Source: an uncultured Candidatus Saccharibacteria bacterium
GTDB lineage: Bacteria; Patescibacteriota; Minisyncoccia; Phycocordibacterales; UBA9973
Direction of reading: 5' to 3'
DNA: 31,548 nucleotides
NCBI GenBank assembly: GCA_964403005.1
Contig: CAYOEB010000002.1
Span: 8,423-39,970 of the forward strand
The notes under the pieces are model-generated. The model worked only from the letters and a program-made list of their open reading frames with translations. It was not told where the DNA came from and did not search any database. Both the position numbers and the translations under genes were made by a program. Positions 11,285 to 23,608 of the stretch are shown here, piece after piece. Positions within the stretch are counted from its first letter, which is position 1; each line of letters starts with the position of its first letter.

Positions 11285-12313
11285 TTAGGCAATCGTGTAG
11301 AGGCCTTGCTTGTTCTTCTTGAAATACTTTGCGTTCTGAAGGTTGACGAGGATGGTGTTTTTCTTGAGAAAACGTTCTTTGAGGACTTTATCAACGATAT
11401 CTTCTTTGCTCATTGGACCATTTTTCTTAAGAATTTCTTTAATGACATCCTTGACAACACCTGGCTTGTAACCCCATTCTGAGAGACCATATGTACCACG
11501 ACCAACGAGGACAAAACGAGCATCCTTGATGAGTTCATTGTGTGTCGTTGCAATGTGCGTCTTCTTACCAAATGTTTTTTCAATCTCTTTAGCAACTTCG
11601 CGGAAGTGCATCGGGTTACCGTGCTTACGCATGATGAGGTACGCATAGTCTTTGATACCGCGAGTCTTTACGTTTGGTGACTCAGCAACACCCCACTCAT
11701 TGAGCGGATTAGACTTGATGGCCTTTGACATACCGAGCCAGCGGCGTGCAATTTCTTCATTGCGGTAGTCATTGCTGATATTTTTGAGTTCTTCAAGGAA
11801 ACGAGTGATGATTTCTGATTCTGGAACGAGCTCATCGTTTGCTAGTGACGAATAGAGTTTTTTGAGTGCACCGTGAACTTCGTTTGAAATAGCTTCGTCA
11901 ATTGTCCAGCGAGCGTGGAACTCATCATCTTCAGCATGCTTTCTAAATTCATCACCGAGAACGAGATAAAAGTGGAAGTGGTTCTTGGTTTCTTCATCCT
12001 TTGCAAGAGTTGAAAGGAGCTCGTCTTCAGCAACAACAGAGCCAAGTGAGAGGAGAGCTTTTTTAAGCTCTTCAAAAGCTTCTTTTTCAGCAGCGTAGAC
12101 ATCTGACTTTCGAATTGTTGCAAGCGCAGCATTTTCGATCTGACGGACACGTTCACGGGTAATACCATACTTCTTACCAATAGCTTCGAGTGTCTTTCGT
12201 TCAGCGTCAGGGGTAAGACCAAAACGAGAAACAACCACGTCATGCGCGCGGTCTTGGAGGACTGAGAGAATCTTTTTGCTCACCTGTTTTGGTTTAATGT
12301 TTACGGTTGCCAT
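11285..12313 (-). CDS. Sigma70 region-4 HTH plus C-terminal HARE-HTH (RNAP delta N-terminal-like) protein
   Basis: SRFGL...KTLEAIGKKYGITRERVRQIE (sigma 4.2); AYLIMRKHGNPMHFREV...THNEL...FVLVGRGTYGLSEW (HARE-HTH); a second winged-HTH-like block at the C-terminus. Confidence 0.82.
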   Translation of the reverse strand: MATVNIKPKQVSKKILSVLQDRAHDVVVSRFGLTPDAERKTLEAIGKKYGITRERVRQIENAALATIRKSDVYAAEKEAFEELKKALLSLGSVVAEDELLSTLAKDEETKNHFHFYLVLGDEFRKHAEDDEFHARWTIDEAISNEVHGALKKLYSSLANDELVPESEIITRFLEELKNISNDYRNEEIARRWLGMSKAIKSNPLNEWGVAESPNVKTRGIKDYAYLIMRKHGNPMHFREVAKEIEKTFGKKTHIATTHNELIKDARFVLVGRGTYGLSEWGYKPGVVKDVIKEILKKNGPMSKEDIVDKVLKERFLKKNTILVNLQNAKYFKKNKQGLYTIA

Positions 12314-15895: not shown

Positions 15896-16450
15896 CTAGC
15901 CTTCTAAGACTTCCTTTTCCTTCTTTTCATACAGCGTTTCTAGCGCTTTGTTTGCAGCATCAACCTTTTTCTGCAATTCATCTTTGGCACGGAACTTATC
16001 ATCTTCGCTCATTTTACCATCACGCTCTTTGGCCTGAATATCGTCCCAGACTGTCTCGCGAACTTTACGGACGGCAATACGCGCTTCTTCAAGGCGTTCT
16101 TTGAGCGTTTTGACATGACGCTGACGAGATTCAGTTGTGAGCTGAGGAAAAATGACTCGGAGTCCAGAATCATCACTCGCAAGAGAGAGTCCAAGATTTG
16201 CGGCCTGTATAGCTCGTTCAATTTCTTTTACCAATGTTCTGTCCCATGGCGTCACACGGAGTGTTTTTGGATCTTCAATAGAAACCGAAGCCACATTTTT
16301 GATTGGCATGCGAGAGCCGTAGCTTTCAACTTGAACCATATCAAGTACAAGCGGGCTTGCGCGACCAGTATTGAGCGACGCAAATTCACGAGAGAGTCGT
16401 TCCTCAACTGCTTTAGTATCTTTTTCAAAATCGGTAAATTGGTATGCCAT
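15896..16450 (-). CDS. frr: Ribosome recycling factor
   Basis: LNTGRASP, VESYGS, LRVTPWD, IERAIQAANLGL, PQLTTESR, ARIAVRKVR, KDELQK. Start is probably ATG 16450. Confidence 0.97.
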   Translation of the reverse strand: MAYQFTDFEKDTKAVEERLSREFASLNTGRASPLVLDMVQVESYGSRMPIKNVASVSIEDPKTLRVTPWDRTLVKEIERAIQAANLGLSLASDDSGLRVIFPQLTTESRQRHVKTLKERLEEARIAVRKVRETVWDDIQAKERDGKMSEDDKFRAKDELQKKVDAANKALETLYEKKEKEVLEG

Positions 16451-16488
16451 ATAGAAAAAAGTATAGCAAATGGGGCTTTTTTCGTTTA

Positions 16489-16518
16489 TTGACAAGACTC
16501 TATTTATAGTGTAGAAAT
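16489..16518 (+). promoter_or_regulatory. sigma70-type promoter for 16538..17569
   Basis: TTGACA (16489-16494) - 17 nt - TAGAAA(T). Confidence 0.5.
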
Positions 16519-16537
16519 TGCTTAAACGAACCTCACA

Positions 16538-17569
16538 ATGAAAAAAACGACACCACAGACTAAACGCCGAACTGTCGGCACTGTATCCATAGATACATTA
16601 AAACGGATCTTTGGATTTAAGGAAAATCGAACTGCGTATGCCTTTCTAAAAAAGGCGAATATTACTATAGGGAGAGACAAGTATATGAGCATGGTTGATG
16701 TTGCTGCAATTCTCAAGTATATGAAAGTAAAAGAGCTGCCTGAGAGATTTCTTCACATTGACGAAGCGGCAAAGTTACTTGGAACAACCGAGAAAAAACT
16801 GACACTCATTATGAGAAGCGGTGTTGTCCCCTTCTATAAAACAAATGCAGAGCGTGGCTCGAAATATTTCTTCGTTAAAGAAGAACTTGAGCAGTTCAAG
16901 GTGAATGCGGCGTTGCATAGTATTGATCTCTCTATACCAAATGGCTACATGCGTCACATGTACAAGCTCGAACAGTATGACAGTATCTTTGGCAGTGTCC
17001 TCCGCTACCTTGAAGCCTCAGAGAAACTTTTCTCAAAAAAAGAACTCCGCATCATCAGATCGATTTGGATAGAGGGGAAAAGTAATGCTGCGATTGAACC
17101 TGAAATTGGAATCGCTCGTGGCCAAATTGCCATAATCTATAAGCAGGCAATGCAGAAGCTTCGTGATAAAATCGGAGAACTGTGGCAAGCGTTTGATGAA
17201 CGCGACGCACTTCTAAACGAGGCCGCAATACTAAAAGCGAAACTCAAACAAAGAGATGCGAGAATTGAAGAGCTTACGTTACGTCTTGGTAGTGCTTCGC
17301 TTGCTGAGACCAAGGAACCTGTTCCTGAAAATGTAGCTGAGATACAAATGCTCCTCGTAACACCTGTTAGTAAACTACCGTTTTCAAACAGAGCCATCAA
17401 ATGCTTTATCGGTAATGGTATTAGCCAGCTTGGAGATCTCGTCAGTTTAACTGAAAATGATCTTCGGAAACTTAGGAACCTTGGCGATAAGACTTTAACT
17501 GAAATCACAGATATTGTGCGTCAGAAAAATCTTAACCTTGGCATGAAAGTCGGTGCGTACTTTAAGTAA
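16538..17569 (+). CDS. Multidomain DNA-binding protein: excisionase-like HTH, sigma4-like HTH, coiled coil, RNA polymerase alpha C-terminal domain
   Basis: aa 71-120 FLHIDEAAKLLG...GVVPFYK...KYFF; aa 164-210 FSKKELRII...GKSNAAI...IGI..QIAIIYKQAMQKLR; aa 216-250 heptad-like; aa 272-337 LPFSNRAIKC...GDLVSLTENDL..RNLGDKTLTEI..NLNLGM. Confidence 0.8.
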   Translation: MKKTTPQTKRRTVGTVSIDTLKRIFGFKENRTAYAFLKKANITIGRDKYMSMVDVAAILKYMKVKELPERFLHIDEAAKLLGTTEKKLTLIMRSGVVPFYKTNAERGSKYFFVKEELEQFKVNAALHSIDLSIPNGYMRHMYKLEQYDSIFGSVLRYLEASEKLFSKKELRIIRSIWIEGKSNAAIEPEIGIARGQIAIIYKQAMQKLRDKIGELWQAFDERDALLNEAAILKAKLKQRDARIEELTLRLGSASLAETKEPVPENVAEIQMLLVTPVSKLPFSNRAIKCFIGNGISQLGDLVSLTENDLRKLRNLGDKTLTEITDIVRQKNLNLGMKVGAYFK

Positions 17570-17573
17570 GCAC

Positions 17574-17600
17574 AAAAGGAGCAGACAGCTCCTTTTTTTA
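17574..17600. terminator. Intrinsic terminator between 16538..17569 and holB
   Basis: AAAAGGAGC (17574-17582) / GCTCCTTTT (17588-17596), plus T-run. Confidence 0.8.
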
Positions 17601-17634
17601 TTTGTCTAACAATCGAACATCAATAAAACGAGTT

Positions 17635-18303
17635 CTAGATTTGCATTGCCATGGCTTCAAGTAATTGCTTCGGTGACGAACCACGGTCATTTATATACTT
17701 CCGCAATTCCATAATTCGTTCAAGTTTTTCAGCATCAGCATTTCCTTTTTTTAAATACAGCTCGTTTTGCAATTGATTGATGACAATATCAAATAGCTGA
17801 TGCGCTGCATCACGAAATGCATTTTGATCATCCTTATTTTTAGAAAGTTTTTCAATGTGCGCAAAACGTTCCTTGAGCGACATGGTGAGAAAGTTTGGCT
17901 GCGAGTTTTTTTTAGATTCGTGAGTAAGCCCACGCGCGACCATAATCGCACGTGAACGAAGTGTTGGCAGGAGTAACTCAGGATTTTCAACAAAAAGCAG
18001 GTAGTGCACGCCAGCTCGAGGCTCTTCAAATGTTTTGAGAAGTGCATGCTGCGCTTCGGGAGTAAGATTTCTCGCAACAATTGCGATAAATGTCTCACCT
18101 TCTGTTTGGAGTGAAGCGAGTTCGGAAACCGTTCGACTGTCTTATATGCCAAATTGCTCAACATCGTAGAGGAGCGCACGTTCATGTGCACCAAATTTCT
18201 TTCCTTGTTTCTCCTCAAAAAAAACGAGTACTCCAGGAGCCGCACTCCTATCAAAAATGTATGCGTGGGCAATTGATGATGAAAAAAGATCTGAGAGTTG
18301 CAT
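17635..18303 (-). pseudogene. holB: DNA polymerase III delta-prime (HolB)-like gene interrupted by an in-frame TAA at codon 54
   Basis: Hand translation from ATG 18303: MQLSDLFSSSIAHAYIF...VEQFGI*DSRTV...EAQHALLKTFEEP...LLLPTLRSR. The stop lies at 18144-18142. AQxALLKxxEEP and LPTLRSR are clamp-loader motifs. Confidence 0.8.
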
Positions 18304-22930: not shown

Positions 22931-22955
22931 AAAAACCTCACTTGGGTGAGGTTTC
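22931..22955 (-). terminator. Hairpin overlapping the stop of the DnaA-IV-like gene
   Basis: AAACCTCAC-TTGG-GTGAGGTTT, with an A-run on the left giving a U-tail on the minus strand. Confidence 0.6.
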
Positions 22956-23525
22956 AGGTATTTGTTTGAGGACATCATTGACTTCATTAGCATCAAATAG
23001 GTATCGAGCGACAGCTCTTTGATAGAAAATTTCAAGAATGTGGTTGTGGGTATGTCCGTCAACGTTACGAAGTGTCAACAACTTTGATATCTCAGCAATG
23101 GTCATTGGACCATGAACATTTTGAGTGTATGCGGCAAGTGCACCGCATAAATTCAATACCATCACCTTGAAAGCATTGCAGTACTGCGCCTCCTGTTTGC
23201 AACGGTTGTAATGAACTCGAAGCGAGCTATGGACAGTTGCATGGTTTTGGCCAAATAGATTGCCCATTTTTTCATACGAGCACTCCGAAAACATGGCAAG
23301 AAATACGTAGACAAGACGGCGTGCGCTGACACATTTGAACAATTGGCTCGCCGATTGCATTTCTACCCTCGAAACACCTGTGGCTTTTGTAACATGAGAT
23401 AAGATTAGGTTTTCAAGATCTTTCTCCTTGATATCCAGCTTGTGCGGTGCACAATTGGCTAATGTTTTGAAGTAGGAAACCATCGTTTCCCGATCTTCTT
23501 TTTGAGTGGGAGTTATGGTTTCCAT
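22938..23525 (-). CDS. Protein containing a DnaA C-terminal (domain IV)-like HTH, with no AAA+ domain
   Basis: ILSHVTKATGVSRVEMQS...SARRLVYVFL...SYEKMGNLFGQNHATVHSSLR aligns by eye to VAEYY.I...DL.S...ARQIAMYL...SL.EIG..FGGRDHTTVLHA. Start is probably ATG 23525. Confidence 0.7.
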   Translation of the reverse strand: METITPTQKEDRETMVSYFKTLANCAPHKLDIKEKDLENLILSHVTKATGVSRVEMQSASQLFKCVSARRLVYVFLAMFSECSYEKMGNLFGQNHATVHSSLRVHYNRCKQEAQYCNAFKVMVLNLCGALAAYTQNVHGPMTIAEISKLLTLRNVDGHTHNHILEIFYQRAVARYLFDANEVNDVLKQIPETSPK

Positions 23526-23608
23526 AGATTGTTTTTTAGACTTTTTACTTTTATACCACAAACATATCCCCCTTGCCTACCCCAAAAATCCGTGCTATCT
23601 TATAGTCC

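Follow-up and report, generated by a model that had tools for sequence, protein, structure and literature searches.

Region 4 of the sigma factor (sigma4) and the C-terminal domain of the alpha subunit (alpha-CTD) are the two parts of RNA polymerase (RNAP) that read the DNA upstream of the -10 element, and they are the main docking points of transcription activators. Ultra-small bacteria have very few recognizable regulators. The alpha-CTD binds A/T-rich UP DNA via R265, and both this alpha residue and sigma region 4 are targeted by phage T4 (PMC2988021). In addition, WhiA, a transcription factor that is not a sigma factor, reads its DNA sequence with a sigma4-like helix-turn-helix (HTH; PMC10243135). 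Here, we analyzed a stretch of 31,548 nucleotides (the window) from the genome of an uncultured Candidatus Saccharibacteria bacterium (assembly GCA_964403005.1, contig CAYOEB010000002.1, positions 8,423 to 39,970), in which a gene on the forward strand (16538 to 17569) encodes a 343-amino-acid (aa) protein with homologs of both RNAP modules on one chain. On balance, this gene probably encodes a stand-alone, multiheaded DNA-binding transcription regulator that is neither an RNAP subunit nor a sigma factor. Its kind is already known, being that of a modular HTH regulator made of borrowed RNAP modules, and the five-module bacterial branch to which it belongs is a new member set of an uncharacterized family.

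The open reading frame (ORF; 343 aa plus stop) is a real coding sequence, as indicated by co-linear homologs and by an AlphaFold2 (AF2) model. Built with a 44-sequence alignment, this model reaches a mean predicted local distance difference test (pLDDT) score of 90.6, compared to an unusable 48 for the single-sequence prediction; its interdomain geometry is uncertain (predicted template modeling score of 0.47). The AF2 model and family profiles give the module order as winged HTH 1 (wHTH1), wHTH2, sigma4, coiled-coil helix, linker, and alpha-CTD. An earlier sequence-only reading of this DNA had listed four modules; the predicted structure contains five, the additional one being wHTH1, and all five are modeled at high confidence. 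The folded modules are all basic (pI 9.2 to 9.9), and the whole protein carries a net charge of +18. They are preceded by a basic N-terminal tail (aa 1 to 14; 16538 to 16579, +) with a net charge of +5, which is predicted to be disordered (pLDDT of <50 for residues 1 to 9).

The alpha-CTD homolog occupies aa 264 to 343 (17327 to 17566, +) and is the only domain that passes curated Pfam thresholds on the 343-aa protein alone (PF03118, residues 269 to 327; E value, 1.2e-13; 51 bits versus a cutoff of 23.8). Pfam also finds it in 34 of 35 co-linear homologs. In Foldseek comparisons, the domain matches the Escherichia coli alpha-CTD structures 3N4M, 1LB2, 3K4G, and 3N97 with a root mean square deviation of 0.6 to 0.9 Å over 65 to 67 residues at 42% identity; 3N4M, 1LB2, and 3N97 among them are DNA bound. 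VIA-align returns Z scores of 13.0 and 12.8, and the family profile matches solved alpha-CTDs with an E value of 2e-32. The C-terminal alpha-CTD proposed in the sequence-only reading is therefore genuine, and the residue map drawn there proved exact against RpoA of E. coli K-12: R265, N268, C269, N294, G296, K298, and S299 correspond to R285, K288, C289, N314, G316, K318, and T319. The changes from E. coli RpoA are N268K, K297D, and the conservative S299T, and the acidic patch at 259/261 is absent (K279 and P281 instead).

Across 44 family members, the DNA contacts of the alpha-CTD are widely kept (R265 in 42, N268 in 34, C269 in 29, N294 in 36, G296 in all 44, K298 in 33, and S/T299 in 34). 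The acidic pair is also common, with Asp or Glu at 259 in 38 of the 44 and at 261 in 32; both acidic residues are missing in three members, the 343-aa protein among them.

The alpha-CTD fold does not make this gene rpoA, as the sequence-only reading had already held. Pfam finds no alpha N-terminal domain (alpha-NTD; PF01193 or PF01000), NCBIfam rpoA models match the protein by their C-terminal parts only (52 to 56 bits versus cutoffs of 228 to 302), and the gene does not lie in an rpsD-rpoA-rplQ operon. The true rpoA is found in that operon elsewhere in the genome, between rpsD and rplQ (locus L002, 1474 to 2499, -), and its 341-aa product has both the NTD and a CTD that scores 61 bits. Three genes in this genome carry an alpha-CTD, namely, the true rpoA, the 343-aa gene, and a paralog of 448 aa. 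In the paralog (L001, 466 to 1812, +; contig C1 of G000), a different N terminus precedes a sigma4-like helix, a coiled coil, and an alpha-CTD (66 bits). Orthologs of 466 to 469 aa, found in G014 and G018, group with it in a tree of alpha-CTDs (96/91).

The sigma region 4-like domain covers aa 133 to 205 (16934 to 17152, +). On the 343-aa protein itself, the evidence lies below threshold (Pfam Sigma70_r4 E value of 0.023 and KORA E value of 0.0065; NCBIfam sigma70-ECF E value of 2e-4). At the level of the family and the structure, the region 4 HTH is found: Sigma70_r4 (PF04545) matches 23 of the 35 co-linear homologs (best E value, 3.5e-13), and the family profile matches SigA region 4 in 1TTY (E value, 7e-8) and 1KU3 (about 1e-7). 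Model residues 133 to 212 align with domain 4 of SigF, sigma28, SigL, sigmaH, and others at VIA-align Z scores of 7.4 to 8.9. Homologs, profile, and model together confirm the sigma4-like HTH. Its recognition helix was described as noncanonical in the sequence-only reading, and this holds as well, given that residues 193 to 199 read A-R-G-Q-I-A-I versus a family consensus of T-R-E-R-V-R-Q. One of the five canonical -35-contact residues is kept and four are replaced. In the family as a whole, 19 of the 44 members have a canonical helix (at least four of the five residues of R-E-R-x-R-Q), and the helix varies in the others. No sigma region 2 (PF04542) is matched in the 343-aa protein; in a genome-wide search, this region was found only in the two complete sigma factors of 423 and 210 aa. 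With neither an alpha-NTD nor sigma region 2, the protein lacks any known means of joining core RNAP.

Continuous with the sigma4 recognition helix runs a coiled-coil-type helix (aa 206 to 250; 17153 to 17287, +), and AF2 predicts one unbroken helix over residues 194 to 249. The coiled coil is supported by this helix and by heptad periodicity, which is significant against shuffles in the 343-aa protein (P = 0.005) and reaches P ≤ 0.05 in 23 of the 44 members. When residues 160 to 262 were modeled in two copies, the homodimer prediction scored 0.35, below the mark of 0.42 for a verdict. The putative dimer of the sequence-only reading rests on the heptad pattern and the long predicted helix. A flexible linker follows (aa 251 to 263; 17288 to 17326, +), with a pLDDT of 56 and no secondary structure in the model. 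By simple geometry, the helix of about 45 residues spans roughly 65 Å and is succeeded by some 14 linker residues, which would hold the alpha-CTD away from its own sigma4 domain. The 343-aa protein would therefore not be a rigid copy of the (UP, -35) sigma4/alpha-CTD arrangement in 3N97.

The N-terminal part of the protein consists of two beta-alpha-alpha-beta winged HTH units (residues 15 to 62 and 71 to 126 in the model). The second, wHTH2 (aa 68 to 128; 16739 to 16921, +), is an excisionase/MerR-type HTH of the HTH_17 family. On its own sequence, it remains below threshold (Pfam HTH_17, residues 72 to 120; E value, 4.3e-4; 20.9 bits, under the cutoff of 27; NCBIfam "excise" model E value, 1.6e-4). 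When the homologs were scanned singly, 34 of the 35 matched HTH_17 (best Pfam E value, 1.5e-11), and model residues 69 to 132 align with the MerR-type winged HTHs 6XL5, 3D6Y, 7XN2, and 2VZ4 at VIA-align Z scores of 7.0 to 7.5. Homologs and model thus bear out the excisionase-like HTH of the sequence-only reading. The first unit, wHTH1 (aa 15 to 62; 16580 to 16723, +), is predicted as strand-helix-helix-strand-strand-helix with a pLDDT of 93 to 96. It is a diverged duplicate of the HTH_17 unit, as hhalign pairs it (about residues 12 to 64) with wHTH2 (residues 68 to 128) at a probability of 96.4% (E value, 1e-9).

An HTH of the excisionase type could point to a recombination directionality or DNA-packaging accessory protein, of the excisionase or small-terminase kind. 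PHROGs returns domain-level matches to excisionases and one to a small terminase, and VIA-align relates the model to the G20C small terminase and a TerS-like protein at Z scores of 7.2 to 7.4, values near 7 being inside the noise range that the tool states for helical domains. Against this, the bacterial loci examined contain no integrase, attachment site, or terminase close to the gene, and neither sigma4 nor alpha-CTD modules are known to take part in those processes. We consider such a function very unlikely. More generally, no linkage to an integrase or a mobile element was seen, and the neighbors were housekeeping genes in every bacterial locus examined.

As a regulator, the protein would combine these modules as follows. 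The mechanism that we infer, comprising DNA binding, oligomerization, and a regulatory outcome, would use the alpha-CTD, whose DNA contacts are conserved family-wide, as a generic minor-groove anchor on A/T-rich DNA. Sequence specificity would come from the sigma4-type HTH and the two wHTH units, with recognition helices that vary between members. The long helix beyond the sigma4 recognition helix would oligomerize the protein, probably into a dimer, allowing a number of weak DNA contacts to act together. At promoters or immediately upstream of them, the bound protein may occlude or reshape the promoter-upstream DNA, a repressor or architectural factor being the simplest form. Among the 44 members, the alpha-CTD contact score is about 5/6 in both the canonical and the variable sigma4-helix groups. 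A variable sigma4 helix together with a steady alpha-CTD score is the pattern expected for diversified specificity with a constant anchor. The copy in the genome of the window would be an accessory one that diverges rapidly and whose specificity has drifted from -35-like DNA.

Both modules are also major protein-contact hubs in the holoenzyme. The sigma4 and alpha-CTD copies could accordingly form an RNAP-directed mimic or decoy that acts by protein contacts, by competing for the beta flap, by titrating activators or phage factors, or by bridging RNAP to sites chosen by the wHTHs. Alpha R265 and sigma region 4 are targets of phage T4 (PMC2988021), and the phage-borne relatives and fast evolution of the family would fit. 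The acidic 259/261 pair, through which the E. coli alpha-CTD contacts sigma region 4, is retained in most members; the role of E261 in this contact is quoted in PMC10243135. However, the strongest conservation in the alpha-CTD concerns the DNA-contact set and not a protein-contact patch, the 343-aa protein has lost the acidic patch (K279, P281), and it contains no RNAP-docking domain. Moreover, a canonical sigma4 helix is not associated with retention of the acidic patch across the 44 members (Fisher P = 0.52). A mimic or decoy therefore seems unlikely to us. The sequence-only reading had described a factor carrying its own copies of both upstream-promoter modules of the holoenzyme. This part stands, since homologs of sigma4 and of the alpha-CTD are both present. 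The idea of a portable promoter reader has to be tempered, as four of the five -35 residues and the acidic patch are lost and the alpha-CTD sits far from sigma4.

To delineate the family, 1.84 billion representative proteins were searched exhaustively with HMMER, giving 2035 matches, most of them to the alpha-CTD only; a word-indexed homolog search with the 343-aa protein found no match. About 44 of the HMMER matches are co-linear, full-length homologs of 305 to 350 aa with 21 to 29% identity, which run end to end with the 343-aa protein in alignments A1 and A2. The 343-aa protein has the family core of HTH_17, sigma region 4, and alpha-CTD, co-linear in one chain of about 280 to 350 aa, and it keeps the nearly invariant positions F71, P98, G107, R285, and G316. 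Metagenomic proteins of up to 1000 to 1800 aa (e.g., P0004 with 1030 aa and P0146 with 1031 aa) contain three to eight tandem alpha-CTD-like repeats, indicating that free-standing alpha-CTD modules are used far beyond RpoA.

The distribution of the family is patchy. Full-length members occur in five of the 41 genera of the taxonomic family, with one additional partial copy, and those genera place them in unrelated neighborhoods, such as next to dnaJ/dnaK or to TspO and Dam methylases. More distant members have varying housekeeping genes as neighbors, and no conserved neighbors were found outside the genus among the bacterial loci examined. When about 400 genomes of the phylum were searched with the full-length profile, the only match was in the genome of the window; three other genomes match over sigma4, coiled coil, and alpha-CTD, and the remaining hits are rpoA. 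One of the genomes counted (G194) is unpublished, and no specific claim depends on it.

The same core occurs in genomes of tailed phages. The ESM Atlas holds several clusters of 50 to 573 members with the same three Pfam domains, mostly from Uroviricota and Bacteroidota where taxa are recorded. About 35 viral contigs, mostly of 55 to 130 kb, encode co-linear HTH_17-sigma4-helix-alpha-CTD proteins (found with a subalignment of canonical members and matching over query residues 47 to 308). The two phage proteins that were checked, L052 and L054 from IMG/VR, have all three Pfam domains above threshold, and BLASTP aligns the 343-aa protein to L054 from sigma4 to alpha-CTD with an E value of 7e-10. 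Around the phage homologs lie genes typical of phages, with mixed or unknown functions. A genome-contig search with P0001 returned Sphaerochaetaceae rpoA only, a viral-contig search with P0054 returned no related loci, and tblastn against GenBank phages gave rpoA-type alpha-CTD matches only, in contaminating or host-like records. The phage homologs do not contain wHTH1. As judged from these sequences, phages and bacteria share the family core, and the bacterial branch seen here appears to have gained the second N-terminal wHTH.

The sequence-only reading had left room for a family already characterized, and none was found. Databases list the family only under automatic names, "putative DNA-directed RNA polymerase subunit alpha" or "excisionase family DNA-binding protein." No model in Pfam, NCBIfam, PHROGs, or PADLOC spans the whole architecture; PHROGs gives domain-level matches only, and PADLOC gives weak, domain-level ones (PglW 782 to 859, E value of 4.7e-4; mad1 HTH, E value of 1.7e-3). 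A full-text literature search likewise found no study of the HTH_17-sigma4-alpha-CTD architecture.

In a tree of alpha-CTDs (97 rows, 67 columns), the deep split is weakly supported (60/52). The RpoA CTDs of the phylum all fall on one side, that of the window's own genome lying in a well-supported clade of its order. On the other side are all fusion CTDs (bacterial, phage, and the group of the 448-aa paralog), together with the RpoA CTDs of E. coli and Sphaerochaetaceae. Phage and bacterial fusion CTDs interleave (L082 with P0065, 99/89; L078 with P0124, 90/94). The tree argues against a recent duplication of the tail of the host rpoA; it does not prove a phage origin.

These relationships bring up a domesticated phage regulator in phage-host conflict, which might bind the promoters of incoming related phages (superinfection immunity) or have been retained from an old phage insertion. 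The interleaving of phage and bacterial fusion CTDs speaks for it, as does their position outside the RpoA CTDs of the phylum. The alpha-CTD of the 343-aa protein is also closer to that of E. coli (41% identity) than to that of its own genome's RpoA (23%). Patchiness, with members in five of 41 genera of the family and three of eight genomes of the genus, and the low identity of the same-genus orthologs (27 to 28%, versus 50 to 94% for flanking genes) point in the same direction. On the other side, the gene lies among core genes (rseP, frr, holB-like, mreB) in a synteny kept in three genomes, no integrase or phage genes are near the locus, and GC content is unremarkable. Moreover, the PADLOC matches are weak and domain level, and the main tree split is weak. 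Such a role strikes us as improbable, to the same degree as the mimic or decoy discussed above.

Regarding the RpoA proteins themselves, the alpha-CTDs of the window's order have a second hairpin that reads EGIGEKG (N294G and S299G, with C269A and K297E), while R265, N268, G296, and K298 are kept. N294G occurs in about half of the phylum's sampled RpoAs (those of loci L009 to L045 and the genome's own). Throughout the phylum, R265, N268, and G296 are invariant in RpoA CTDs, and K298 is almost so. The second hairpin of the fusion family is RN(F/L)GxK(S/T), a form common elsewhere. Replacement of a lost RpoA tail by the fusion was considered and ruled out: RpoA keeps its 61-bit alpha-CTD, and the hairpin-2 variant is order-wide but the fusion is patchy.

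The 343-aa gene is monocistronic and divergent from frr, with its own promoter-like element and terminator. The putative promoter (16489 to 16510, +) consists of a -35-like TTGACA (16489 to 16494) and a -10-like TATAGT (16505 to 16510), separated by 10 nucleotides (nt). In G006 and G004, two genomes of the genus, the orthologous region contains the same ATTGAC and TATAGTG strings. Both genomes have a canonical TTGAC(T/G)-17-TATAGT promoter; in the window, a 7-nt deletion cuts the spacer from 17 to 10 nt, and a consensus promoter scan near the gene found no sigma-70-type promoter. Downstream, an intrinsic-terminator-like hairpin begins 5 nt past the stop codon (17574 to 17596; with its T run, 17574 to 17606, +) and comprises a 9-bp stem with four G-C pairs followed by TTTATTT. 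Apart from the 7-nt deletion, the intergenic region between frr and the 343-aa gene (16445 to 16545) is conserved in three genomes. The start of frr is most likely the ATG at 16450 (MAYQF..., as in orthologs) and not the TTG at 16495.

The gene lies between frr and a holB-like gene, within a neighborhood of rseP-like, frr, holB-like, and mreB genes that are arranged alike in two further genomes of the genus. Within the genus, three of eight genomes have the gene, and the other five gave no match with the 343-aa protein as the query. Flanking proteins are 50 to 94% identical between these genomes, compared to 27 to 28% for the orthologs of the 343-aa protein, which by this comparison of sequences evolves far faster than the products of the flanking genes. 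In G004, the ortholog (L006, 1432 to 2211, -; 259 aa by ORF, 244 aa as P0010) ends after the sigma4 unit. About 30 nt separate its end from that of holB, with no remnant of the coiled coil or alpha-CTD, both having been cleanly lost there.

The holB-like gene itself (DNA polymerase III delta', 17635 to 18303, -) has an in-frame TAA at 18142 to 18144, a nonsense change and not a frameshift. Its orthologs in the genus have Asp or Glu at this position and are uninterrupted (226 and 241 aa), and the TAA could mark a pseudogene, come from an error in assembly, or be a site of read-through. The genome of the window originates from wastewater metagenomes and comprises 634 kb in 58 contigs at 85% completeness, sampled genomes of the phylum ranging from 0.4 to 2 Mb. 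The stretch is present in four DNA sequencing runs of one wastewater study, and no RNA run is listed as containing it.

Several observations weigh against a working regulator in this genome. The 343-aa protein deviates at key sites, with a rewritten sigma4 helix, N268K, K297D, loss of the 259/261 patch, and a 10-nt promoter spacer, so its mode of action may differ or the copy may be in decay. Since the G004 ortholog has neither coiled coil nor alpha-CTD, at least one lineage can do without these parts. In addition, no candidate operator for the 343-aa protein was identified. In the extreme, the gene would be a relic, an intact-looking but functionally decaying copy. To the lost sigma4 recognition residues, the lost acidic patch, N268K, and K297D would then be added the shortening of the promoter spacer relative to both orthologs, the truncated ortholog and the five genomes of the genus without a match to this query, and the in-frame stop in the neighboring holB-like gene. 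Nevertheless, the 343 codons are uninterrupted and co-linear with the family throughout, all five modules are modeled confidently, F71, P98, G107, R285, and G316 are kept, and the terminator is intact. A relic appears to us improbable but deserves some weight. A working regulator with shifted specificity is more likely, because reading frame, predicted fold, and the nearly invariant positions of the family are all preserved.

A broader role for the whole family can be pictured, though we give it little credence. Its members may be trans-acting "upstream promoter readers" on -35/UP-like DNA, with which phages capture or shut off host promoters and which some ultra-small bacteria have domesticated as a global regulator or for antiphage immunity; the fusions could then supply a canonical UP-type reading that RpoA has partly given up (N294G, S299G).

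Two other proteins encoded in the window stood out. A 341-aa protein encoded at 11285 to 12313 (-) combines an N-terminal sigma-70 region 4 (47 bits) with a HARE-HTH (54 bits) and has no sigma region 2, making it another orphan fusion of an RNAP module. Unlike the 343-aa gene, it appears conserved, as ORFs of 343 to 356 aa with sigma4 matches occur in most genomes of the taxonomic family. At 22938 to 23561 (-), a 206-aa protein contains a Bac_DnaA_C HTH over residues 51 to 114 (32.3 bits versus a cutoff of 31.5) and no AAA+ domain.

The family described here is widespread and unstudied, and in phages, mobile DNA of Bacteroidota, and ultra-small bacteria alike it places sigma region 4 and the alpha-CTD on one chain with excisionase-type HTHs. 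If its members do bind promoter-upstream DNA, this would amount to a novel and simple means of occluding, marking, or rewiring promoters, a possible tool for phage takeover, and a handle on transcription control in ultra-small bacteria. The chief value of the 343-aa gene is that of a well-documented and diverged member with five modules, one that defines a bacterial branch.

The 343-aa protein can be compared with several known systems. With the alpha-CTD of RpoA (PF03118; 1LB2, 3K4G, 3N4M, and 3N97), it has in common the fold, the equivalents of R265, C269, N294, G296, and K298, and the preceding flexible linker. The RpoA domain is joined to an alpha-NTD, which the 343-aa protein does not have, so it cannot assemble into core RNAP in this way. 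The helical fold of sigma-70 region 4 (PF04545; 1TTY, 1KU3, and 2H27), including the region 4.1 helix, is likewise shared, and the family consensus T-R-E-R-V-R-Q is the canonical -35-reading helix. Sigma-70 factors, however, have regions 2 and 3, both absent here, and the helix of the 343-aa protein reads A-R-G-Q-I-A-I. They also do not have the coiled-coil extension of about 45 residues that continues its recognition helix. Both N-terminal modules have the fold of excisionase/MerR-type winged HTH proteins (PF12728; 6XL5, 3D6Y, and 2VZ4), and homologs and model place wHTH2 with the HTH_17 type. Excisionases have an integrase as partner, and the 343-aa protein has none. MerR family members have an antiparallel dimerization helix directly after the winged HTH, and an effector domain; in the 343-aa protein, both are missing, and the long helix of the AF2 model comes after the sigma4 unit and not after the winged HTH. 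The phage/Bacteroidota HTH_17-Sigma70_r4-RNA_pol_A_CTD family shares the co-linear core. In contrast to the 343-aa protein, its phage members begin at HTH_17, the helix that links sigma4 to the alpha-CTD is shorter in them, and their C terminus is extended by a tail of about 70 residues. WhiA, likened here by description and not by sequence, sets the precedent for sigma4 as an ordinary transcription factor domain: its HTH, similar to region 4 of sigma-A, reads DNA, a long helix joins it to the rest of the protein, and an alpha-CTD is bound upstream nearby (PMC10243135). WhiA differs from the 343-aa protein in that its N-terminal domain is homing-endonuclease-like and its own chain includes no alpha-CTD.

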